From IMG/VR virus record IMGVR_UViG_3300025834_000005: a stretch of DNA of 64,000 bases, one strand, 5' to 3'. The DNA is from a virus. Both the position numbers and the translations under genes were made by a program. Below, in pieces: positions 2,710-31,187 of this stretch (position 1 is its first letter; every line of letters starts with the position of its first letter). A model generated the notes under the pieces. The model made no database searches, had not been told where the DNA came from, and saw only the letters and a program-made list of their open reading frames with translations.

Positions 2710-3193
2710 CGAAATGATTGATGTTTTTCACGGAAGTACTAACAAATTTGATGTCTTCGATACAAGTAAAATAGGCACAGGCGACGGCAAAAGTATTGGT
2801 GGCTGGGGTTTAAATTTTTCAGACACAAGGGAAGTTGCTCAACAGTATTTTCTAAAAAGCGGATTTGTTGGTAGCTATAAAATTCCCAATGGAGATTATT
2901 TTAGCTTAGATGATAGGTTTGACCCAAGTGTGGGCGAGCTTATAAAAAGGGCACTCGATAAAATCGGAACTATAAAAGATGATGATATCGAAGAATTTCA
3001 AAACGATTTTATCGATAATGCCGATGAAGTTACCAATAAACAAGTGTATGAGTGGTTGTCATATGTTGTAGGATCTGAAAAGAATGCTTCTCTGCTTTTA
3101 GATCGGATAGGTTTTGTCGGCAATAAGTTCAGCGACAGGTGGAACAGAGAAGCAACAAATTATGTTATTTTCGATTCTAAAAATATTAGATAA
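2684..3193 (+). CDS. hypothetical protein, possible ADP-ribosyltransferase (H-Y-E/PARP-like) fold
   Basis: VFHGSTNKFDVFD...GGWGLNFSDTREVAQQY resembles the PARP-type HGS ... GxGxYFxxxxxxxxxY layout, read by eye only. Confidence 0.4.
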   Translation: MNKLIQLINEMIDVFHGSTNKFDVFDTSKIGTGDGKSIGGWGLNFSDTREVAQQYFLKSGFVGSYKIPNGDYFSLDDRFDPSVGELIKRALDKIGTIKDDDIEEFQNDFIDNADEVTNKQVYEWLSYVVGSEKNASLLLDRIGFVGNKFSDRWNREATNYVIFDSKNIR

Positions 3194-3194
3194 A

Positions 3195-3440
3195 ATGAAA
3201 GATACGCACTCCAAAATTATTCAGATAGTGTCTGAATTCTTAGATCAAAATCCAAATCAACGATTTGGTGAAGCACTTTTTAATTTAAACATCACACAGT
3301 TTAAATACGACCTGAAAGATATCGTAAAGCCGACAGACGTAAGTTATCAAATGCGAGACATTTACAACGATAACGATACATGCATGCTTAACAGAGTAAT
3401 AGAGTCAGGCAAGATTTTTAATTTAAAATCGGCAGAATAA
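3195..3440 (+). CDS. hypothetical protein
   Basis: In-frame ATG 3195 directly after the previous stop; the longer track ORF would overlap the upstream gene. Confidence 0.5.
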   Translation: MKDTHSKIIQIVSEFLDQNPNQRFGEALFNLNITQFKYDLKDIVKPTDVSYQMRDIYNDNDTCMLNRVIESGKIFNLKSAE

Positions 3441-3441
3441 A

Positions 3442-3717
3442 ATGGCAACTCCAATTATTTTCGCTATAGAATACGTTATTCTGAACTCTGACGGTAGGGT
3501 TATAAAAGAAGGCGAAATAAACGTAAAGAATAAAACCACCAAATTTGAAGCTCAATGCTCATTAGAAGTGTTTTTAAAGAAAAAGCATCCTGATTTCAAG
3601 TCGATGATCATAAAAAAATGTAACGAAAAAAGTGACATTTTAAATATGTTTGACGAGATATTTGGGAAAAATAATAAATCGAACCCATTTGGAGGGTCAA
3701 ATCCATTTAAATTTTAA
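3442..3717 (+). CDS. hypothetical protein
   Basis: ORF track; tight tiling. Confidence 0.5.
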   Translation: MATPIIFAIEYVILNSDGRVIKEGEINVKNKTTKFEAQCSLEVFLKKKHPDFKSMIIKKCNEKSDILNMFDEIFGKNNKSNPFGGSNPFKF

Positions 3718-3722
3718 TTATC

Positions 3723-4112
3723 ATGATTCTAAAACTTGACACAGTAGCAAAAACCATCCAAATTGATGGTAGCGTAAATGCTTTTGATTTATTCGAAGCA
3801 TTAGTGGTAATGCTTCCTAATGATCTCTGGAAAGAATTCTCATTATTCCAGAAACCAACTGAATACATTTTTAATCCTGTTTATCCAGCATATCCGACGA
3901 TTCCATATACATCACCGTATATTTGGAATCCGTTCAGTCCAGTTGTAACATTGCCTTGGATTAACTATACAGCCAATGGTAATAATTTTACAGTATCGGC
4001 GGATGCTGGTAATACAGGCGGTAATTTTACTGTTATGCAGCAATATAAAGGCATTTTAAATGAAGGCATTTTTGACGTAGTTTTAATGTCGAAAGACGAT
4101 ATTAAAGAATAA
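3723..4112 (+). CDS. hypothetical protein
   Basis: ORF track; tight tiling. Confidence 0.5.
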   Translation: MILKLDTVAKTIQIDGSVNAFDLFEALVVMLPNDLWKEFSLFQKPTEYIFNPVYPAYPTIPYTSPYIWNPFSPVVTLPWINYTANGNNFTVSADAGNTGGNFTVMQQYKGILNEGIFDVVLMSKDDIKE

Positions 4113-4115
4113 TTT

Positions 4116-4976
4116 ATGATTTGTGTATACCATAAAAAAGATAATGATGGTTTCTGTAGTGCCGCAATTATACAGAGAAAATATCCAGATGCTGAATTTA
4201 TTGGCTATGATCATGGCGATGATCATATCAAATTTCTTGACTTTATCGACGAAGAAATCATAGTTGTTGATATTAGTTTCCCTATGAATATCATGTATAA
4301 CATTGCCAGTCGTAATAAGCTAACATGGATAGATCATCACGCATCGAGCATTGATAGTTATAATGTTTTTGATCATTCTACTGATAATAATATTAATGCT
4401 ATTCTTGAGGTGGGTAGAGCCGCTTGCGAATTAACATGGGAATATATTTTTCCTAATGAATTCATGCCTATAGGTATTGAATGCTTGGGAAAATATGATA
4501 CTTGGCGTGGATATGGCTCTGATGAATGGAATCATTACATTCTACCATTTGAATATGGAATGAGATCAATTTGTTCAAGCTTTGAGACATTTCCAAAGTT
4601 TGTCATAGATTACAATGAAGGCGAAGCTATTGATAGCATAATTAATAGTGGTAGAATCATAATTGGCTACCAAAATGTGGTTGACTCAAAACTATGTGTT
4701 TCAAATTCATTTGTTCGTCGTTTTAAAGGTTATAGAGCACTTTGTTTGAATGTTCCTTACATTGACTCGAATACAATGCAAAGTGTTTTCAACGCATCTG
4801 AACACGATTTAATGCTATCATTTACTTTTAAAGGCACACATTGGAGTTGCAGCCTTAGAAGTCAAGGTGATTTAGATGTCAGTGCTATTGCCAAATCAAT
4901 GGGCGGTGGTGGGCACAAAAACGCATCGGGCATGGAATTAACAACAGCCCAATTAGTAGAATTATTTAAATTGTGA
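4116..4976 (+). CDS. DHH/DHHA1 family phosphoesterase (NrnA/RecJ-like)
   Basis: Motifs HKKDNDG (DxD), VVDISF, WIDHHASS (DHH) and GGGGHKNASG (DHHA1 GGGH). Confidence 0.75.
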   Translation: MICVYHKKDNDGFCSAAIIQRKYPDAEFIGYDHGDDHIKFLDFIDEEIIVVDISFPMNIMYNIASRNKLTWIDHHASSIDSYNVFDHSTDNNINAILEVGRAACELTWEYIFPNEFMPIGIECLGKYDTWRGYGSDEWNHYILPFEYGMRSICSSFETFPKFVIDYNEGEAIDSIINSGRIIIGYQNVVDSKLCVSNSFVRRFKGYRALCLNVPYIDSNTMQSVFNASEHDLMLSFTFKGTHWSCSLRSQGDLDVSAIAKSMGGGGHKNASGMELTTAQLVELFKL

Positions 4977-13545: not shown

Positions 13546-14709
13546 ATGAGAACAAGTGTCGTACTCGGATTAGGATTCGGGGATGAAGGTAAGGGAAGTA
13601 TGGTAAACTTTCTATGTAAGGTACATAAAAATGAACGTCCATTGGTGGTTAGATTTAGTTCTGGACACCAAGTAGGTCATACCGTTGTCGAGGGTGATCT
13701 TAGACATGTTTTTTCAAATTTTGGGTCAGGGACTCTTAGTGATGTGCCAACATACTGGTCAGAGTATTGCACGATGAATCCATCAGCCATACGGTCAGAG
13801 GGCGAAGCATTAAAGAAGATGGGTGTATTTCCGACACTATATATTAACGATAATGCGATGGTTACAACACCATACGACATATTAAAGAATCGTATGTCAG
13901 AGACTAAGAATCGTCATGGCAGTGTTGGTGTTGGGTTTGGCTCGACTATTCAGCGTAATGAGGATCATTTCAAGCTATATGCCAGAGATTTGAAATTTCC
14001 TAAAATTCTTGATATTAAATTGAAACATATTGCCGAGATATATCATAAAAGCACTTTTGTCGAATATCCTGATGGTTATGTTGAGAAACTGATAAATAAT
14101 TTTAAGCTTGATTGCAAATATGTTGTAAATGAGCATATGTTTGTTTCTCGCATTAATGATGTTATATATGATAAGCAATTTGGACATTTAATATTCGAAG
14201 GAAACCAAGGTATCATGCTTGATCAGGATTATGGTTTCTTTCCAAATGTAACCAGATGCAATACAACGTCGAAAAATGCTTTTGAGATCATGAAAAAATA
14301 TGGTGTTCATACTGGCGAAACAAACGTTTACTATATGACACGTGCATATCAAACTCGTCATGGTAATGGTGAAATGATTAATGAGGGAATGGATGTGCAA
14401 TACATTGCTGAGAATCCTCTTGAAACCAACGTACAAGGCGAATTTCAAGGTAGTTTTAGGAAAGCACCTCTGGATTTACAGACAATTAAATATGCTTTAT
14501 CATGCGATAAAGTATATAATGACTATAGCATATCGAATCTTGTTATAACATGCATGGATCAAGTTCCTGAACGCATACCTATTATGAACGGCGATAAATT
14601 AGCTCACATGTATCCGTCACTAATAGGTTCTATTCTGAATATAAGACCCTTAAATATATTCATAAGTAAATCGGATAAAGGTGATTTTGAAAATGCAATG
14701 GATTTATGA
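13546..14709 (+). CDS. adenylosuccinate synthetase family protein (PurA/PurZ-like)
   Basis: GFGDEGKGSMV (GDEGKG P-loop), SGHQVGHT, FEGNQG, TRCNTT, QTRHGNG align by eye to the PurA motifs GDEGKGK, GHNAGHT, EGAQG, TSSNT, STRVGxGP. The TKLD position reads TCMD. Confidence 0.8.
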   Translation: MRTSVVLGLGFGDEGKGSMVNFLCKVHKNERPLVVRFSSGHQVGHTVVEGDLRHVFSNFGSGTLSDVPTYWSEYCTMNPSAIRSEGEALKKMGVFPTLYINDNAMVTTPYDILKNRMSETKNRHGSVGVGFGSTIQRNEDHFKLYARDLKFPKILDIKLKHIAEIYHKSTFVEYPDGYVEKLINNFKLDCKYVVNEHMFVSRINDVIYDKQFGHLIFEGNQGIMLDQDYGFFPNVTRCNTTSKNAFEIMKKYGVHTGETNVYYMTRAYQTRHGNGEMINEGMDVQYIAENPLETNVQGEFQGSFRKAPLDLQTIKYALSCDKVYNDYSISNLVITCMDQVPERIPIMNGDKLAHMYPSLIGSILNIRPLNIFISKSDKGDFENAMDL

Positions 14710-16778: not shown

Positions 16779-16808
16779 TTGTAACCTTTTAATCTTCTTT
16801 ACGTATAA
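16779..16808 (+). promoter_or_regulatory. ECF-type promoter copy TTGTAAC-N16-CGTATAA
   Basis: -35 at 16779-16785, -10 at 16802-16808; upstream of rtcB. Confidence 0.6.
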
Positions 16809-16833: not shown

Positions 16834-18159
16834 ATGTTTGATTTAAAAGGAAAGCACACAGATGCTATTTTATATTTAGATAATTATGAGGACGGTTTAT
16901 TCGAGCAAATCTACCCAATCATTAACTCATATGTATCCAAAGGCTTAAAGGTTCGTATTATGCCAGATGCCCATATTGGTAAAGGTATCTGTATCGGTTT
17001 CACTATGGAATTGGGTCAGTATTTGAATCCGAACTGGTGTGGCGTTGATATTGGCTGCGGAATGCTGTCAGGCAGATTTAAAGCAAATGGCGTATTAGAC
17101 TTAGCCATGATCGATGAAAAGATCAAGAAATTAGTTCCTATGGGATTTAATGTTCATGAGGGTGCTAAGTCGAAAAAGATTCCATATGCCGAAGTACAGG
17201 AATTAGCGAACAAATTTGCTGAAAAGTATAATGAAAAGTTTGGTACTTCTTATGTTGCGCCTTCTTACAATGAGAAATGGCTGAAAACTAAGCTAAAGAC
17301 TATTGGTATGGATGCTGAGAAGTTATTCAAGTCAATCGGAACTTTAGGTGGTGGTAATCACTTCATTGAACTTGGGTATGACGAAGAGTCAAAGGATAAC
17401 TGGATTACAGTTCACTGTGGTTCAAGAAACTTAGGTGTTAAGGTATGTGAGTACTGGCTGAACCAAGCTAAAACACAGTCAAATGATACCTCACCTGAAT
17501 ATCTTGCGGAATTCGATGCTTTGGTTAAGAATACTGTGGATAGATCAACAATACCTCAGTTGATGAAGGAATTAAGAGAGAAATATAAAAAGGGTATTGA
17601 TCGTGATTACCTTTCAGATGAATTGTCCGTAGGATATTTGTTTGATATGATCTTTGCTCAAAAATATGCTGAATGGAATCGTCAGACTATACTTGATATA
17701 ATCCAAAAGATTTTGAAAGTGAAGGCTTTTGACGAAGTTATTTCATCAGTGCATAACTATGTCGACTTTCATGACTTCATCATCAGAAAAGGCTCTATTT
17801 CATCATATGTGGGTCAAAAAATGATTATTCCTTTTAATCAAAAGGATGGTATGCTTATCTGCGAAGGTAAATCAAATCCTGACTGGAATAACTCTGCGCC
17901 ACACGGAGCAGGTAGACTCTATTCAAGATCGAAAGCTAAGGAATTGATCACTCTTGAAATGGTTGAAGAATCAATGAAAGGAATCTATTCAACATCAGTA
18001 TGTAATTCGACTATTGATGAATCGGTTTTTGCCTACAAAGATTCTAAAATGATCGAAGAAGCGATTCAAGATACCGCAACAATTCTTCATAGGGTAAAAC
18101 CTATTTTGAATATTAAGGATTCAACAGCCGCTCCAAGACGTTCGAAGAAAAATCAGTAA
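16834..18159 (+). CDS. rtcB: RtcB RNA 3'-phosphate/2',3'-cyclic phosphate ligase
   Basis: IMPDAHIGKGICIGF, CGVDIGCGM, GGGNHFIELG, HCGSRNLG, SAPHGAGR: the full set of RtcB metal/GMP-histidine motifs. Confidence 0.93.
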   Translation: MFDLKGKHTDAILYLDNYEDGLFEQIYPIINSYVSKGLKVRIMPDAHIGKGICIGFTMELGQYLNPNWCGVDIGCGMLSGRFKANGVLDLAMIDEKIKKLVPMGFNVHEGAKSKKIPYAEVQELANKFAEKYNEKFGTSYVAPSYNEKWLKTKLKTIGMDAEKLFKSIGTLGGGNHFIELGYDEESKDNWITVHCGSRNLGVKVCEYWLNQAKTQSNDTSPEYLAEFDALVKNTVDRSTIPQLMKELREKYKKGIDRDYLSDELSVGYLFDMIFAQKYAEWNRQTILDIIQKILKVKAFDEVISSVHNYVDFHDFIIRKGSISSYVGQKMIIPFNQKDGMLICEGKSNPDWNNSAPHGAGRLYSRSKAKELITLEMVEESMKGIYSTSVCNSTIDESVFAYKDSKMIEEAIQDTATILHRVKPILNIKDSTAAPRRSKKNQ

Positions 18160-19794: not shown

Positions 19795-20124
19795 ATGAGT
19801 ATGATGAGAATAAATAATATGAGTTATAGTGGCAACAACATAGTTATTTCCAAAGGAAAGGTTATAATTGATGGCGTTGACGTAACACCTGATTCAAAAA
19901 AAATCAACATTGTTGTTGACGGTAACATCGATAAATTGAATGTGGATACTTGCGATACACTACAAATAACTGGTGATGTGGACACAGTGTCTACTATGTC
20001 TGGCGACGTTGATATAACTGGTAATGTTACTGGCAGTGTTAAAACTATGTCTGGCGATGTTAAATGCGAAAATATCGGCGGTGGCGTATCTACTATGTCT
20101 GGCGATATCAAATACAGAAAATAA
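19795..20124 (+). CDS. beta-helix repeat protein, bactofilin-like (polymer-forming)
   Basis: Repeated (S/K)TMSGD(V/I) units and G-x-V/I periodicity; the DNA repeat actatgtctggcga occurs three times. Confidence 0.4.
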   Translation: MSMMRINNMSYSGNNIVISKGKVIIDGVDVTPDSKKINIVVDGNIDKLNVDTCDTLQITGDVDTVSTMSGDVDITGNVTGSVKTMSGDVKCENIGGGVSTMSGDIKYRK

Positions 20125-20813
20125 TGAAATTTTTAATTCAAATAGATAAAGGCAGAGTAATACATGATTTTGCCTTCACATTGCTTGAGAGTATTGAGTA
20201 TCTAAACTGGATTTCAGACGAAAAAATAGTGACGTACAGGCTCACTGAAAACTCAATGCCAGCTGGTTTTGTGCCGATAGGTACTGTTGAGTTTGTTAGC
20301 GACTACATTGAGAAATATTCAGGTAGTAGACCTAAGCCTATAAATATACCAGCTGAATTAATGTCACATGAATTTACCCATAGGCATGTGAAGAACGGTA
20401 CTGAACTGGACATTGTTCAGAAGTCATTTGTAAAATCGAGTGACCACATCAAGTCATTCGCAGAGATTTGCGATCATGCACCAATGGGTAACTACCAAAT
20501 ATCTGATATTATCGAGATTGAGAGCGAATGGAGAGCATTTGTATACAATGGTAAGTTAGTTGGGCTTCAAAATTATTCTGGAAGTTTTACCGAGTTTCCC
20601 AACGTGTACTCAATTCAATGTATGATTAATGCTTATAAGTCAGCACCCATAGCATACACATTAGATGTTGCAATTACAAAAGGCGGATGGACTTCGGTAA
20701 TTGAGGTTCATGACTTTTTTAGCTGTGGATTATACGGATTTGCTGATCACAAAATACTACCATTCATGTTTTCAAGATGGTATGGCGAATATATACGTAA
20801 TTTAGCTTACTAA
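20124..20813 (+). CDS. ATP-grasp fold protein (phage DUF4343-like)
   Basis: SEWRAFVYNGKLVGLQNYSG and a C-terminal ..VIEVHDFFSCGLYG pattern; start at ATG 20124 (TAATG overlap). Confidence 0.45.
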   Translation: MKFLIQIDKGRVIHDFAFTLLESIEYLNWISDEKIVTYRLTENSMPAGFVPIGTVEFVSDYIEKYSGSRPKPINIPAELMSHEFTHRHVKNGTELDIVQKSFVKSSDHIKSFAEICDHAPMGNYQISDIIEIESEWRAFVYNGKLVGLQNYSGSFTEFPNVYSIQCMINAYKSAPIAYTLDVAITKGGWTSVIEVHDFFSCGLYGFADHKILPFMFSRWYGEYIRNLAY

Positions 20814-24694: not shown

Positions 24695-24963
24695 GCATAC
24701 TTCAAGATATCATCGAATCATATGATGACGAAACATTTTTAAAAGCCGATGGCTTCGACGAAGCAATTATAGGCGTTGATGAAGCCACTATGAGACTAAT
24801 CTATTCAGTATCCAAATGTTTGGATATATTAATCAAACGTGATGGACTGTTATGGGAAGAAGCTGTTGAGCATTTCAACTTCAATGTAAGCGGAGCATAT
24901 ATGGGTGTGAAAACGCCAATCTGGTGTGAAGATCAATTTGAATCCTTTCGTGATGAAAAATAA
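24658..24963 (+). CDS. hypothetical protein (conserved phage family; start may be GTG 24691)
   Basis: GFDEAIIGVD...AVEHFNFNVSGAYMG; GTGA overlap at 24691-24694. Confidence 0.5.
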   Translation: MDAKTLKTRGIVSILQDIIESYDDETFLKADGFDEAIIGVDEATMRLIYSVSKCLDILIKRDGLLWEEAVEHFNFNVSGAYMGVKTPIWCEDQFESFRDEK

Positions 24964-25007
24964 TCTACAATCACCCCGAAAAATATTTCGAAAATAATTA
25001 AAGATTT

Positions 25008-25037
25008 TTGTAACATTTGAAAAGTTCTTACGTATAA
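25008..25037 (+). promoter_or_regulatory. ECF-type promoter copy TTGTAAC-N16-CGTATAA
   Basis: -35 at 25008-25014, -10 at 25031-25037; heads the TROVE/RNA unit. Confidence 0.6.
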
Positions 25038-25067
25038 CGAAGAAACAATAATTAAAACAATAAAAAT

Positions 25068-26501
25068 ATGAGTAAATTGAACCCTATTTTAAAAAGTGGC
25101 GTTTCTGATTTAAAATCAGATGAAAGACTTGCTGGTGGATTTGGAACCAGAGCAGCTAAACAAGACGAATTAGCTCTATTACGTAGAGTTGTTTTAGCGA
25201 ACCTATTATGGGAAAACATTGCGTATGCTAACGGTGAAGATGTTTCAACACAGATCAGCCAGTTGATTCCGCAATGTAATCCTCAAGATGTTGCTGATCT
25301 TGCTGTTGAGGCGAGACTTGAGCAGAAATTGCGTCATACTCCTTTGTTTATTTGTGTTGAAATGCTGAAACACGTTGGATATTCTGCGTTGGTTGCCGAT
25401 ATCTTACCAAAGATTATCACAAGAGCAGACATGATTACAGACTTTCTTGCTATCTACAAGAAACAGAATGGCGGTAAGCTAAAGCCTTTGGCTGCTGCTG
25501 CTAAGAAAGGTTTGGCGAAAGCATTCGATAACTTTAACGAATACCAATTCGCTAAATATGACAGGGATGCCGAGATCAAGTTAAGGGATGCTATGTTTTT
25601 AGCTCACCCAAAACCATCTTCACAGGAAAAGATTGAACTTTACAAGAAAGTTGCTGATCGTACTTTGAAAACTCCTGATACATGGGAAGTTGCTTTATCG
25701 ACAGGTAAAGATAAGAAAGCCACATGGGAGAGATTGATCGATGAAAAGAAAATCGGTGGTTTGGCAATGTTGCGCAATGTACGTAATATGGTTCAGTCGG
25801 GTGTTAACTCGAATAGCATTAGAAAGGGATTGAAAAATCTAAATAGTTCGATGTTATTGCCTTTCAATTTCTTAACAGCCTCAAGGTTTGCACCTGAGTA
25901 TTCGAGAGATATTGAGGATGCTATGGTTGAGTCTTATAAGAATCTTCCTAAATTATCTGGAAAGACATTATTCATTGTCGATATTTCAGGCTCAATGGGT
26001 GCTAAATTATCTGACAAGTCGGGAATGTCCAGAATGGATGCTGCTTGTGCAATGGCTATGCTTGCGATTAATCAATGTGAAAACTATGAAATCGTAGCAA
26101 CTGCTGGGAATGATGGTTCGCATAAAGGTGCTCATAAGCATATTCTAAATCCAAAAAAGGGATTCGATGTGTTCAAGCAAATTCAAAGTGCTGGAAGTGA
26201 AATCGGCTGTGGTGGTATTTTCACCAGACAGTGTATCGAATGGTGTAAAGCCAACGTATCTGATACATTCGACAGAATTATCATATTCTCTGACTCACAG
26301 GATTGCGATCTTATGAATGCGAGAATTCCAGCACCTTACGGCAAATATAACTATATTTGCGACGTATCGTCAAATGAGAGAGGCGTTAACTTTAGGAATG
26401 TATGGGATGCCGAAATTACAGGTATGTCTGAAAACTTCCTAACATATATCGCTGCAAACGAAGGTCTAACAAATAAATTTGACGACCAGAGTGAAAATTA
26501 A
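25068..26501 (+). CDS. rsr: Ro60-like TROVE domain + vWA domain protein (Rsr-like)
   Basis: LLRRVVLANLLWENIAYANGED...RLEQKLRHTPLFICVEM and GGLAMLRNVRNM fit the TROVE pattern (compare Ro60 ..LLRNLGKM). C-terminal MIDAS FIVDISGSMG ... IIIFSDSQD. Confidence 0.8.
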   Translation: MSKLNPILKSGVSDLKSDERLAGGFGTRAAKQDELALLRRVVLANLLWENIAYANGEDVSTQISQLIPQCNPQDVADLAVEARLEQKLRHTPLFICVEMLKHVGYSALVADILPKIITRADMITDFLAIYKKQNGGKLKPLAAAAKKGLAKAFDNFNEYQFAKYDRDAEIKLRDAMFLAHPKPSSQEKIELYKKVADRTLKTPDTWEVALSTGKDKKATWERLIDEKKIGGLAMLRNVRNMVQSGVNSNSIRKGLKNLNSSMLLPFNFLTASRFAPEYSRDIEDAMVESYKNLPKLSGKTLFIVDISGSMGAKLSDKSGMSRMDAACAMAMLAINQCENYEIVATAGNDGSHKGAHKHILNPKKGFDVFKQIQSAGSEIGCGGIFTRQCIEWCKANVSDTFDRIIIFSDSQDCDLMNARIPAPYGKYNYICDVSSNERGVNFRNVWDAEITGMSENFLTYIAANEGLTNKFDDQSEN

Positions 26502-26504
26502 TCA

Positions 26505-26554
26505 ACAAAGGTACTATTTATACTTGCAAATTAAATATTAAATAGTACCTTTGT
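26505..26554 (+). other. long perfect hairpin after the TROVE stop (attenuator or processing site; no T run)
   Basis: ACAAAGGTACTATTTA / TAAATAGTACCTTTGT 16-bp stem, 18-nt loop. Confidence 0.5.
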
Positions 26555-26562
26555 AAAAATAT

Positions 26563-26634
26563 TAAGTAATAGCGTTCGGTAAGGGTTACTTCCTCCATAA
26601 ATGAAATCACACCCTACCATCAGTTCTTTGCTTA
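26563..26634 (+). ncRNA. Y-RNA-like stem-loop RNA 1 (conserved module + anticodon-arm-like apex)
   Basis: Ends pair TAAGTAA-t-AG / CT-TTGCTTA; internal loop cgttc/atcagtt; helix GGTAaGGGT/ACCCTACC; apex ACTTC-10nt-GAAAT. Confidence 0.6.
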
Positions 26635-26642
26635 CAAAAATT

Positions 26643-26712
26643 TAGATAATGGCGTTCGATACGGTTACTTCCTTTTACGAAATATTCACCGTATTATCTT
26701 TTTCCTTATCTA
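26643..26712 (+). ncRNA. Y-RNA-like stem-loop RNA 2 (conserved module + tRNA-Lys(UUU)-like anticodon arm)
   Basis: TAGATAA-t-GG / CC-TTATCTA; loop cgttc/atcttttt; helix GATACGG/CCGTATT; apex ACTTC-CTTTTAC-GAAAT. Confidence 0.65.
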
Positions 26713-26719
26713 TTTATAT

Positions 26720-26785
26720 CGGAGTGTGTCTTGGCTTGTAATGCAGTATACGGTATTATATGAGGATCGTCCCCTCGCACACCGA
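26720..26785 (+). ncRNA. degenerate tRNA-like element (acceptor-like pairing + T-arm-like hairpin, no canonical D/anticodon arms)
   Basis: CGGAGTG/CACACCG (one A-A mismatch); TGAGG-ATCGTCC-CCTCG keeps G53, T55, C56, C61 equivalents; only 34 nt between. Confidence 0.3.
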
Positions 26786-26788
26786 CAA

Positions 26789-26900
26789 ATGAATAATGGC
26801 GTTAGAAACAGTTTCATCAACTCAATCTCAATAATTAAGATCAACTCAATCTCAATAATTAAGTAAATACAAAACTCTGTCTCTCATTTTCCTTATTCAT
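26789..26900 (+). ncRNA. Y-RNA-like stem-loop RNA 3 (conserved module, long apex with 24-bp tandem duplication)
   Basis: ATGAATAA-t-GG / CC-TTATTCAT; loop cgtta/tcatttt; helix GAAACAG/CTGTCTC (one A-C mismatch). Confidence 0.6.
26816..26863 (+). repeat. perfect 24-bp tandem duplication
   Basis: atcaactcaatctcaataattaag occurs twice, inside the apex of RNA 3. Confidence 0.9.
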
Positions 26901-26909
26901 CTATATTAT

Positions 26910-27033
26910 AGGGCGTTAGCTCAGTTGGTAGAGCGCGAAATTCTCTTTTACACCTTTTCCCTTTATTGTGGCGTTCGTAAAAGTTACTTCATTCTTAATG
27001 ACGAGGTCGGTGGTTCGAGTCCATCATGCCCTA
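26910..27033 (+). tRNA. tRNA-Lys(CUU)-like gene with a 51-nt insertion between D arm and anticodon arm
   Basis: Acceptor AGGGCGT/ATGCCCT; U8; D arm GCTC-AGTTGGTA-GAGC; insertion 26936-26986; anticodon arm CTTCA-TTCTTAA-TGACG (one U-C mismatch); AGGTC; T arm GGTGG-TTCGAGT-CCATC. Confidence 0.6.
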
Positions 27034-27035
27034 CG

Positions 27036-27120
27036 AAAAACAATAGTGTTCGAGACAGTTTCATCAAAAAAATCGAAATTTTTATACAAAAAACTCTGTC
27101 TTAACTGTTCTTTGTTTTTT
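27036..27120 (+). ncRNA. Y-RNA-like stem-loop RNA 4 (conserved module; apex related to RNA 3)
   Basis: AAACAA-t-AG / CT-TTGTTT; loop tgttc/aactgtt; helix GAGACAG/CTGTCTT; apex TTTCATCAA...ATACAAAAAACT. Confidence 0.6.
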
Positions 27121-27128
27121 TTGAATAT

Positions 27129-27165
27129 AAAAGGTCAACATACTCAAAATATGTTGACCTTTTTT
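27129..27165 (+). terminator. rho-independent terminator closing the TROVE/RNA unit
   Basis: AAAAGGTCAACATA / TATGTTGACCTTTT 14-bp stem, 7-nt loop, T run. Confidence 0.8.
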
Positions 27166-27193
27166 GTAACCTTTTTTATCGAGTTACGTATAA
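27164..27193 (+). promoter_or_regulatory. ECF-type promoter copy TTGTAAC-N16-CGTATAA
   Basis: -35 at 27164-27170, -10 at 27187-27193. Confidence 0.6.
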
Positions 27194-27219
27194 TATAGAA
27201 ACAATTTAAATTTATTGAA

Positions 27220-27777
27220 ATGTTAAAAAATACTGAAATTAAGATCATCGACTTTAGAACGTCGTTAAACAAAGAAAACGAAAATGAATACGTTATTCAG
27301 CCTAATTATAAGGTTCAATACGAGAACGTTATAATTGAATTAAAAGGTAAAACATTTCTCGTTAATATTGGCTGTCAGAGTGTGACAATCAATAAGGATA
27401 ATGTATTACCAATCGCTCAAGAGTTTGAGGGTATCGATAAAAAACCAGTGCTTTACAAACTAATTTTGCCAAATGATGATAAACGTGAATTAAAATCAAT
27501 GAGAAATCTCCCAATATATAAAGAGTCTTCGCCATCCTTACACATATCGTCAAATGGTAAAGTTTATGACAGAGAGAAATTTAGCATCGTTGAAAAAACG
27601 ATAACGCCATCTAATGAGTATTTTAAGAAAAGTGATACGTTGAGCACTGTGCAATATTTAAAAAAAGACCGTAGATTGTACAGGGACGACATACAAAATA
27701 TAAGAAAAATTTTAAATACAATGTGCGATCATTTTAACATTGAATACCCTGACGTTAAAGACTCTAAAAATGAGTAG
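27220..27777 (+). CDS. hypothetical protein
   Basis: ORF track. Confidence 0.5.
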   Translation: MLKNTEIKIIDFRTSLNKENENEYVIQPNYKVQYENVIIELKGKTFLVNIGCQSVTINKDNVLPIAQEFEGIDKKPVLYKLILPNDDKRELKSMRNLPIYKESSPSLHISSNGKVYDREKFSIVEKTITPSNEYFKKSDTLSTVQYLKKDRRLYRDDIQNIRKILNTMCDHFNIEYPDVKDSKNE

Positions 27778-29430: not shown

Positions 29431-29676
29431 TTACCAAGTCTTTTTATTAAAAAGATAAACAGGCATATACATCCATCCTGTAGGCCATTGACGATTATCC
29501 GTAACATTTGTATTTGGCGTAATCGGTGTAGATGCTATAATATTTCTGGGGTTCTTTGGATTAGAACGACCATTTCTCTCTTTAGTCTCAACCCCAACCG
29601 TTAATTTTATCATAAAGTATTTACATATAAATACGAAAATATGGATAATAGTTACTAATTTCTGTAACAAAAACAA
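29431..29676 (-). CDS. possible antisense-oriented small gene (hypothetical)
   Basis: Only long ORF in an otherwise 276-nt gap; its 5' end overlaps the promoter copy, so the true start may be internal. Confidence 0.3.
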   Translation of the reverse strand: MFLLQKLVTIIHIFVFICKYFMIKLTVGVETKERNGRSNPKNPRNIIASTPITPNTNVTDNRQWPTGWMYMPVYLFNKKTW

Positions 29677-30200: not shown

Positions 30201-30663
30201 AACAAATTTAGAATATAGAATGTATTTTCTTGTGTTAGGCTCACTACAAGGTATTAATAAAGGAATTCAGTGTGGGCATGCCGCATTAGAGTATGTGGAC
30301 GAATATGGCAGTAATGACGATTACCGAGACTTTTTCGAGAATGATAAAACATTCATTATGCTGAATGGCGGAACGTCTAATAATGGCTTCGATGAAGATG
30401 GTAAATTCTTAGGTTCTTTGAATATGATTGCTGATGAATTAAATTCAAATAATATCAACTTTGCCATGTTTTATGAGCCAGATATTAACAATGCCTTAAC
30501 AGCTGTATGTTTTCTTGCTGATGAAAGAGTTTATAATAAGTTTATTTATCCTGACTATGATTCAGATAATTTCACGTCCTATGAGCAATGGCTTTCAGAT
30601 ATTGGCGGAACTAAGAACTTCATCCTACGAGAAATTCTCGACGGAAAAAAATTAGCGTCATGA
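30193..30663 (+). CDS. peptidyl-tRNA hydrolase PTH2-like protein
   Basis: YRMYFLVLGSLQGINKGIQCGHAALEY parallels PTH2 ..VVRxDLxMGKGKxAAQCxHAA..; later FIMLNG and ALTAVCF segments fit the fold order. Confidence 0.45.
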   Translation: MNRTNLEYRMYFLVLGSLQGINKGIQCGHAALEYVDEYGSNDDYRDFFENDKTFIMLNGGTSNNGFDEDGKFLGSLNMIADELNSNNINFAMFYEPDINNALTAVCFLADERVYNKFIYPDYDSDNFTSYEQWLSDIGGTKNFILREILDGKKLAS

Positions 30664-31187
30664 CAACAGAGCCAACATTCATAATTATAGCGGCTGTTAG
30701 CCTTGACGGAAAAATTGGACATGATAATGATCTATTATGGCATATACCCGAAGACCTTAAGCATTTCAAAGAAAACACCATAAATCAGGTATTACTTATG
30801 GGCTTAAATACCTTTAAGTTTTTGCCAGAGGTTGCAAAAAAGAACCGTAAGTTTATCATTCTTAATGGTAGCGAAGAAGATTTAAAACATGAGTCTATCT
30901 TATTTCAATGTGCTTCAATAACTGAATTATTCGAAGAATTAAAATTTGATCAATATCAGGATATAAAAAGCATTTATGTTGCTGGTGGTGCAATGGTTTA
31001 CAATTCAATGATACCATTCTGCGATAAGGCTTTATTAACTCTTGTTGAAGAATGTTTCCCCGATGCTAATAAAGGCTTTCCATCGGAACTATTTCTAAAA
31101 ATGTTTGAATTAGATGATGATGATTTCGTATACAATAGAAGCAAATCAAATATAATATATTCATTTCGTCGATATACTCGCAAATGA
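30660..31187 (+). CDS. folA: dihydrofolate reductase
   Basis: IIAAVSLDGKIGHDNDLLWHIPEDLKHFKENTINQVLLMGLNTF and VAGGAMVY. Confidence 0.8.
   Translation: MTTEPTFIIIAAVSLDGKIGHDNDLLWHIPEDLKHFKENTINQVLLMGLNTFKFLPEVAKKNRKFIILNGSEEDLKHESILFQCASITELFEELKFDQYQDIKSIYVAGGAMVYNSMIPFCDKALLTLVEECFPDANKGFPSELFLKMFELDDDDFVYNRSKSNIIYSFRRYTRK

Follow-up and report, generated by a model that had tools for sequence, protein, structure and literature searches.

Together with its Y RNAs, Ro60 forms a conserved particle for RNA surveillance, and the protein is a major autoantigen in lupus and Sjogren syndrome. The Rsr/Y RNA/PNPase complex of Deinococcus provides a precedent for an assembly of Ro60, RNA and nuclease, and the roles of Y RNAs in bacteria and phages are largely open. 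Here, a locus of this kind is described from a stretch of 64,000 nucleotides of viral DNA (IMG/VR record IMGVR_UViG_3300025834_000005; hereafter "the window", in its full length) that belongs to a crAss-like phage. A first-pass annotation had read positions 25008-27165 as a phage Ro60 gene and several cognate Y-RNA-like genes in one unit. Family-level evidence supports this core reading, and the locus is probably a phage-encoded Ro60 ribonucleoprotein module with cognate Y-RNA-like genes. The evidence consists of the identity of the protein, a covarying RNA family found, in the loci searched, only beside Ro60 genes and on their strand, and the reach of that family to the bacterial YrlA RNAs and their GNCGAA motif.

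More than 250 bacteria and 22 phages have been described with Y RNAs close to their Ro60 genes (PMC4201824), and phage Ro60 with adjacent Y-like RNAs is exemplified by mycobacteriophages, CcrColossus and Bacillus phage G (PMC12135203). In Thermus phage phiLo, the Ro60 protein (phiRo60) and two phage Yrl RNAs bind the host PNPase and attenuate it (PMC12135203). An earlier study describes YrlA, one of the bacterial partners of Rsr (Ro60), as a tRNA in circularly permuted form whose acceptor stem is closed and which lacks an anticodon loop (bioRxiv 10.1101/312249), and GNCGAAN0-1G near the 5' end was proposed as the Rsr recognition element (Chen et al. 2014, PMC4201824). The pairing of a phage Ro60 with Y-like RNAs is already known (PMC4201824, PMC12135203), and the TROVE gene of crAss-like phages has already been annotated. 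As far as could be checked, what seems new is the RNA array, a defined docking module that links phage and bacterial members, and the topology of a tRNA that contains this module; an incomplete search of the literature found no published description of these RNAs in crAss-like phages, nor of a tRNA with a built-in, permuted Ro module.

The window locus resembles the YrlA/YrlB systems (PMC4201824; RF02553) in that the RNA genes adjoin the Ro60 gene on the same strand, a conserved 5'-strand motif occupies the same structural position in the basal stem, and one RNA per locus has a tRNA-like domain, the extra plain RNAs resembling YrlB. It differs from them by having five module-bearing RNAs in a row, not one or two. 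With phiLo (9KOP, 9L5Y) it shares a phage Ro60 and adjacent phage Y-like RNAs, but phiLo has two RNAs that lie upstream of the gene and carry a CGAA motif, and no tRNA-like RNA is mentioned in its description (PMC12135203). Binding to Ro60 and to host PNPase has been shown for phiLo, whereas any such binding in the window would be a prediction. Metazoan Y RNAs (RF00019; Xenopus 1YVP) also have a terminal helix, a bulged pyrimidine on the 5' strand, two pairs and an internal loop; by contrast, the window elements lack GGUCCGA/UUGACU, have no match to the Rfam model and carry unrelated apical domains. The first-pass annotation had stated that the metazoan sequence is not reproduced, which stands, and that only the architecture is similar, which does not, since a diverged bacterial Ro-binding motif is present.

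The Ro60 gene and a family of predicted docking modules

The open reading frame (ORF) at 25068-26501, claimed at first pass to be a TROVE+vWA Ro60 gene, encodes a Ro60/Rsr orthologue. Of the two Pfam domains anticipated for the protein, TROVE (PF05731) matches with an E-value of 1.6e-16 (61 bits against a cut-off of 23), and vWA_Ro60 gives a weak match of 22.9 bits, under its cut-off of 27.7. The closest solved relative by both sequence and fold is phiRo60 (9KOP/9L5Y; E 5e-18 over residues 38-415), with an identity of only about 21%. The segment FIVDISGSMG (D305-I-S307-G-S309) lines up with the MIDAS-type VDVSGSM of phiRo60, and D305, S307, S309, T345 and D409 are invariant in 32 relatives. 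A search of the PDB with Foldseek, starting from an AlphaFold model (pLDDT 79.5, pTM 0.59), returned Ro60/Rsr structures as all of its top 13 matches (probability 1.00, about 500 columns), including 9KOP, 9L5Y, 2NVO, 1YVP and 9NEN from phage, Deinococcus, Xenopus and human sources. The TM-scores of 0.38-0.47, together with the pTM, place ring closure beyond the reach of the model. The nearest GenBank relatives of the region are Bacteroides phages of the Steigviridae, including crAss001, with about 65% DNA identity over the Ro60 gene and 59-61% protein identity; the homologues are annotated there as "TROVE domain-containing" or "RNA-binding" proteins.

The RNA family was defined from the 620 nt that follow the gene in the window and the equivalent gaps of three annotated relatives. 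Its members share a stem 1 of 7-8 bp, a bulged U, an R-Y and a G-C pair, an asymmetric internal loop (YG and about 3 nt on the 5' side; about 4 nt and KUU on the 3' side) and a stem 2 of 7 bp, after which come a near-invariant single-stranded UUAC(U/A)UCA (UUACUUCA) and a variable apical part. The consensus of the 5' half reads stem 1, U, R, G, U, G, W, N, N, stem 2, UUACWUCA and variable part, and that of the 3' half reads stem 2', A, R, N, U, K, U, U, C, Y and stem 1'; the minority base C, giving RGCG, is found in three of the four window modules. A hand-picked alignment of 16 modules from five phages had 98.8% of its pair cells paired and compensatory changes at 15 of 17 pairs, whereas sliding the partners by 1-3 columns reduced pairing to 41-49%. 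This covariation confirms the layout of terminal helix, bulged pyrimidine and internal loop that had been proposed at first pass.

A covariance model built from this alignment (R1), with three window modules among its seeds but not module 3 (26790-26899), was searched against the window and against 89 viral loci encoding Ro60 relatives (549 kb). The window yielded exactly four matches, at 26563-26634, 26643-26712, 26790-26899 and 27037-27118 (E 1.4e-16 to 5.3e-09), and no further match in the 64 kb up to E=10. The viral loci yielded 164, all on the strand of the Ro60 gene and near the gene on either side; the best 150 of them come from 71 loci, usually two or three per locus. Among the best viral matches, 112 distinct sequences had 96.7% of cells paired and compensatory changes at 16 of 16 pairs, against 35-54% pairing in slid controls. 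A second model, R2, built solely from matches outside the window, recovered the same four sites (E 2.9e-12 to 1.1e-05), with the next match in the 64 kb at E=0.055. The minimum-energy folds of modules 1 and 2 match the consensus. Counting the chimera described below, the five module-bearing RNAs all lie 62-620 nt downstream of the Ro60 gene on its strand (Table 1).

These features, namely a basal stem, bulge, internal loop and second stem beside a Ro60 gene, mark the four elements as predicted plain Y-like (YrlB-like) RNA genes. The first-pass annotation had counted six structured RNAs, with coordinates that proved accurate to within 1-2 nt. Four of these are Y-type modules and a fifth is a module-bearing tRNA, while the sixth, at 26720-26785, matches no family: it has no match with Rfam, R1 or R2, and its fold of -18 kcal/mol has a z-score of only -0.7. 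Its sole relative is found in L004/L005 (loci are given by their L numbers), with one compensatory change in the T-like stem, and it is absent from L090. From its likeness to a tRNA minihelix, this element is possibly a processing signal. As a separate observation, the apical loop of module 3 contains a perfect 24-nt tandem duplication (26816-26839 and 26840-26863; ATCAACTCAATCTCAATAATTAAG, twice), and the loop at this position in L005 is shorter and unrelated.

Table 1. Positions of the features discussed in the text, in the window unless another locus is named.
Feature	Positions	Strand	Details
Promoter-like motif TTGTAAC-N16-CGTATAA	25008-25037	+	Exact copy; 30 nt before the Ro60 start codon
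Ro60/Rsr orthologue, 477 aa	25068-26501	+	TROVE HEAT-repeat region; vWA with MIDAS-type DxSxS
Post-stop hairpin, 16 bp, no U tract	26505-26554	+	Directly after the Ro60 stop codon; -19.4 kcal/mol, z -7.3
Y-RNA-like module 1 (predicted)	26563-26634	+	Plain, without tRNA domain; R1 60.2 bits; R2 45.3 bits, E 4.8e-07
Y-RNA-like module 2 (predicted)	26643-26712	+	Plain; R1 61.7 bits; R2 47.8 bits, E 1.4e-07
Small structured element	26720-26785	+	Terminal stem and T-arm-like hairpin (GAGG-AUCGUCC-CCUC); tRNA minihelix-like
Y-RNA-like module 3 (predicted)	26789-26900	+	Plain; R1 47.8 bits, E 5.3e-09; R2 38.8 bits, E 1.1e-05
tRNA/Y-RNA chimera	26910-27033	+	Rfam tRNA (RF00005) 42.6 bits, gathering score 29; 64-nt unaligned insert
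Y-RNA-like module 4 (predicted)	27036-27120	+	Plain; R1 78.3 bits; R2 69.9 bits, E 2.9e-12
Intrinsic terminator	27125-27168	+	14-bp core stem, then UUUUUUG
RtcB RNA ligase gene	16834-18159		Pfam 4.4e-56; own promoter-motif copy at 16779
Adenylosuccinate synthetase gene	13546-14709
R2K-type ATP-grasp protein gene	20064-20813
Dihydrofolate reductase gene	30660-31187
DHH/DHHA1 phosphoesterase gene	4116-4976
Second chimera type, L001	6319-6456
Second chimera type, L003	5874-6012
Second chimera type, L018	4341-4479
Second chimera type, L023	4476-4614

The family extends to bacterial Y RNAs through its distant members. In phage loci with a protein identity of about 40-55%, long members (L067, L082, L012, L086 and L070) enclose a T arm, a closed acceptor-like hairpin and a D arm, and are matched by the Rfam YrlA model with E-values of 8e-07 to 0.08, the best at 44 bits, under the gathering score of 69. 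Next to Ro60 genes of bacteria and metagenome-assembled genomes, R1 found 40 matches, all on the strand of the gene, in loci that include Acidobacteria, Alphaproteobacteria and Desulfococcaceae. Members from bacterial and distant phage loci, in which the module often encloses a tRNA-like domain, carry GGCGAAG, and in bacteria also GGUGAAG, at the position of GGCGUUCG in the window. The window motifs (AGCGUUCG, GGCGUUCG, GGCGUUAG and AGUGUUCG) have G.CG in three of four cases and UU in place of AA, and are read as diverged forms of the bacterial motif because they occupy the position homologous to GGCGAAG in members of the same model. The YrlA layout and Rfam matches of the distant members, the Ro60-adjacent bacterial matches and the GNCGAA-type motif together argue that the window elements are Y-RNA-like genes.

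Several relatives carry the same arrangement. In the cultured crAss001 (L172, NC_049977), three clear module matches (E 7e-15 to 3e-07) and a marginal one (E 0.006) lie at 3016-3734 of the locus together with a chimera that scores 46.6 bits with Rfam tRNA, in a gap of about 900 nt, NC_049977 95965-96869, downstream of gp96 that contains no annotated feature in RefSeq. CrAss-like phages, including crAss001, thus carry a Ro60 gene and an array of module-bearing RNAs. The window has five, and relatives as a rule show two to four matches to the model at each locus. A gap of 0.6-0.9 kb that is unannotated in these genomes thereby becomes a set of testable genes, in a system amenable to laboratory culture. 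In cr112_1, an HNH endonuclease ORF lies between the Ro60 gene and the array (L001 5370-5882), and the array therefore need not abut the gene. In other loci, tmRNA and ordinary tRNA genes are found within 1-2 kb of the Ro60 gene (L008 5022-5329, L006 1093-1617, L067 1927-2280 and L002 1401-1704), which suggests that these phages have their small RNA genes clustered in an island.

A tRNA with a permuted module in its anticodon stem

The fifth module-bearing RNA is a tRNA/Y-RNA chimera, and its Rfam tRNA score (Table 1) supports the reading of one RNA in the unit as tRNA-like. Its tRNA body comprises a 7-bp acceptor stem, a D arm (GCUC AGUUGGUA GAGC), an AGGUC variable loop, a T arm (GGUGG UUCGAGU CCAUC) and a 7-nt anticodon-like loop, UUCUUAA; CCA is not encoded, the 3' flank being CGA. 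The anticodon stem has the outer pairs C27-G43 and G28-C42 and the inner pairs U29-A41, C30-G40 and A31-U39, and is split on its 5' side by an insert of 51 nt (26938-26988) between positions 28 and 29. This insert is a circularly permuted Y module, with the 3' strand of stem 2, UUUUCC, a minimal closing hairpin in place of stem 1, UGGCG, the 5' strand of stem 2 and UUACU in that order, and the UCA of the conserved motif forms the inner anticodon stem.

The element at 26910-27033 thus lacks a continuous 5-bp anticodon stem; standard ARAGORN reports no tRNA in the whole window, and calls one here only when the insert is removed or treated as an intron. After deletion of the module in silico, the calls are tRNA-Lys(CUU) in the window, Arg(CCU) in L004, which is 86% identical, and many other anticodons elsewhere. 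The intron-allowing parse, a tRNA-Ser(ACU) with an intron of 42 nt, was rejected in favour of an insertion in the anticodon stem because relatives keep a 3-bp stem and a 7-nt loop after UUACU.

Pairs in the chimeras were counted with an anchor-based script and a shuffled-sequence null, in which the upstream part was shuffled and the same search applied; MAFFT alignments were not used for these counts because they misregistered the upstream strand of stem 2 by 1-2 columns. Among 73 distinct chimeras from the loci retrieved, 71% have a perfect permuted stem 2 (7/7 pairs), versus 2.7% in the null, with 31 distinct strand combinations, and the closing hairpins covary as well (for example CCCGAAGGGG, AUGGAAGCAU and CUGGUAAAGCAG). 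The notion that all anticodon-like loops are of the Lys or Arg type was rejected, as they are diverse across the 73 and shift quickly between related phages (Lys CUU/UUU, Arg CCU/UCU, Pro, Tyr and Thr). Apparent chimeras in the bacterial loci L162, L138 and L103 were script artefacts spanning two adjacent YrlA genes. A second type of chimera is found in relatives, in which the permuted Y module lies between the D arm and a complete anticodon arm. Between otherwise near-identical RNAs of this type, the anticodon arm differs in the manner of a swapped cassette (GUA, UGG or AGG).

Unlike YrlA, in which the order is T arm, closed acceptor and D arm, the window chimera keeps the ordinary order of a tRNA; its acceptor ends are open, it has an anticodon-like loop, and its Ro module is closed by a hairpin of its own. 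The Ro-bound tRNA mimic of M. smegmatis also has an open, tRNA-like acceptor end. There, however, it arises by cutting of the closed acceptor loop, which leaves two base-paired pieces, whereas in the window the open acceptor is encoded in a single chain.

Proposed transcription and function, and competing explanations

The motif TTGTAAC-N16-CGTATAA occurs in 12 exact copies in the window, against 0.02 expected, all on the + strand between 2208 and 32728. The copy at 25008-25037, which the first-pass annotation had named as the start of the unit, is one of them. An extra copy with one mismatch lies at 29662, and every copy precedes ORFs. The motif is unlike the Bacteroides sigma-70-type consensus and probably serves as the promoter for a single temporal class of genes in this phage. 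At the other end, the terminator already recognised at first pass folds at -17.9 kcal/mol (z -6.3; equally stable shuffles 0/200), and its U tract overlaps the next motif copy at 27164-27193. A generic scan for sigma-70 promoters and terminators gave counts equal to those in shuffles and missed this strong terminator. Not even a degenerate copy of the motif was found within 25038-27163. Within 26502-27219 there is no ORF of more than 76 aa and the shorter ORFs overlap RNA elements, in keeping with the earlier statement that the roughly 620 nt after the gene hold no credible ORF. Given the motif copies at 25008 and 27164, the terminator and the lack of a copy between them, the simplest reading is that the Ro60 gene and the RNA array form a single promoter-to-terminator transcription unit, the promoter being a predicted one.

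Transcription from the motif at 25008 as far as the terminator would produce one precursor, to be cut into pieces of about 70-125 nt. RNase P and RNase Z would act at the tRNA-like elements, and exonucleases would trim the remainder back to the stems protected by Ro60. Each RNA would dock on the phage Ro60 through its bulged helix and loop, and the variable apical parts and the tRNA body may tether Ro60 to host factors, for which PNPase and tRNA-handling enzymes are candidates by analogy. The effect would be to redirect or dampen host RNA decay and quality control early in infection. The TROVE gene of crAss001 is an early gene, with transcription seen by 10 min after infection (PMC8375218), consistent with a role in takeover of host RNA metabolism.

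For the chimeras, a more specific function is conceivable, and in our estimate unlikely: they could be Ro60-docked tRNA mimics, matured by RNase P, RNase Z and CCA addition, that serve as decoys, sensors or repair substrates for host anticodon-loop nucleases. If so, Ro60 with a tRNA look-alike would constitute an anti-defence or RNA-repair platform, accompanied by an RtcB ligase in the window lineage, and this would be a new task for Y RNAs and a new way of countering host defences in the phage family that is most abundant in the human gut. The locus is also a phage-borne, early-expressed source of a Ro60 orthologue in the gut, which may be relevant to the proposal that Ro60 orthologues of commensals prime autoimmunity against Ro60.

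Some observations weigh against a Ro60 module with cognate Y-RNA-like genes. The fold z-scores of single modules are modest (-1.0 to -2.9), the window motif [AG]G[CU]GUU[CA]G departs from GNCGAA, and the 112-sequence alignment was fitted to the model, which favours pairing, with a large margin over the controls nonetheless. The match to bacterial Y RNA models anticipated at first pass did not appear: an Rfam scan of 24800-27500 at E-values up to 10 gave a tRNA match, no YrlA and no Y_RNA; other Rfam matches there (miRNA, CRISPR-DR and PK-HAV) were rejected as falling on hairpins or arising by chance. We infer the discrete RNAs and their binding to Ro60 from the sequence, and PNPase as the host partner would follow the example of other systems. 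The chief uncertainty for co-transcription of gene and array is the post-stop hairpin, which lies ahead of the first RNA and which the first-pass annotation had overlooked. Most transcripts could end there without reaching the array, in which case the RNAs may need read-through or an unrecognised promoter. The hairpin recurs at the same position with the same sequence in L005 (about 3935-3985) and with a different sequence, still of about 17 bp, in L090 (about 2290-2340), and is possibly an mRNA 3' stabiliser, an RNase III or processing site, or a leaky terminator.

It could be argued that the chimera is mainly a working tRNA or tRNA precursor, in which the module is intron-like or a handle and the plain modules are degenerate copies or by-products. 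The chimera has a complete tRNA core, deletion of the module yields ordinary ARAGORN tRNAs in the window and most relatives, the window phage encodes an RtcB ligase, and ordinary tRNA and tmRNA genes lie nearby in relatives. However, the insertion point between positions 28 and 29 is no known bacterial intron site and the insert is not a group I intron, while the module is under strong structural selection and also occurs free-standing and in bacterial YrlA-type RNAs beside Ro60 genes. The anticodon-like triplets moreover differ among close relatives, as with CUU in the window and CCU in L004, and crAss001-type phages have chimeras in genomes without an RtcB match. On balance, we think a working tRNA quite unlikely as the main product.

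A second explanation holds that the elements are cis-acting parts of the 3' untranslated region of the Ro60 mRNA, such as stabilisers, attenuators or RNase barriers, and not trans-acting RNAs. The lack of a promoter-like motif between ORF and array, the tight packing of the elements with spacers of 2-9 nt, and the hairpin right after the stop codon would all agree with it. Yet in more distant loci of phages and bacteria the modules precede the Ro60 gene, sometimes by 0.3-1.5 kb, and in cr112_1 they are separated from the gene by the HNH endonuclease ORF, so that structure is conserved and position relative to the mRNA is not. The characterised homologues YrlA, YrlB, Yrl1 and Yrl2 are, besides, free RNAs (PMC4201824, PMC12135203). 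In our estimate a purely cis-acting role is highly improbable. As for the view that the repeats are chance or compositional features of AT-rich intergenic DNA, or plain tandem terminators, the G+C content of the region (26-39%) and the modest single-sequence z-scores speak for it, but compensatory changes at 16/16 pairs, shuffle and slide controls that are far lower, and the recovery of the same four sites in 64 kb by the window-free model R2 refute it and leave it a negligible probability. A Ro60 ribonucleoprotein module with cognate RNAs is therefore the reading we prefer.

The rtcB gene and other neighbours

The first-pass annotation had pointed to an rtcB gene upstream as part of the context known from bacterial Ro60 loci. 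The gene is real, and its link to Ro60 is weak: it has a promoter-motif copy of its own 8 kb away. Its closest GenBank phage match is an uncultured 735-kb phage with 59% identity. The crAss001-type phages, which have the Ro60 gene and RNA array, are absent among the 683 phage records that match RtcB at E-values up to 1e-5, and a conserved functional link was rejected on this ground. The association is specific to the window lineage and no conserved part of the Ro60/RNA module.

The same strand block encodes further auxiliary proteins, namely adenylosuccinate synthetase, an R2K-type ATP-grasp protein, dihydrofolate reductase and a DHH/DHHA1 phosphoesterase. The exact Ro60 protein of the window was also found on contigs of 0.2-1 Mb, for example L091 (ENA k141_1156773, 328,453 bp). 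Related crAss-like genomes measure about 100-113 kb, and these large contigs may be concatemeric assemblies or misassemblies.

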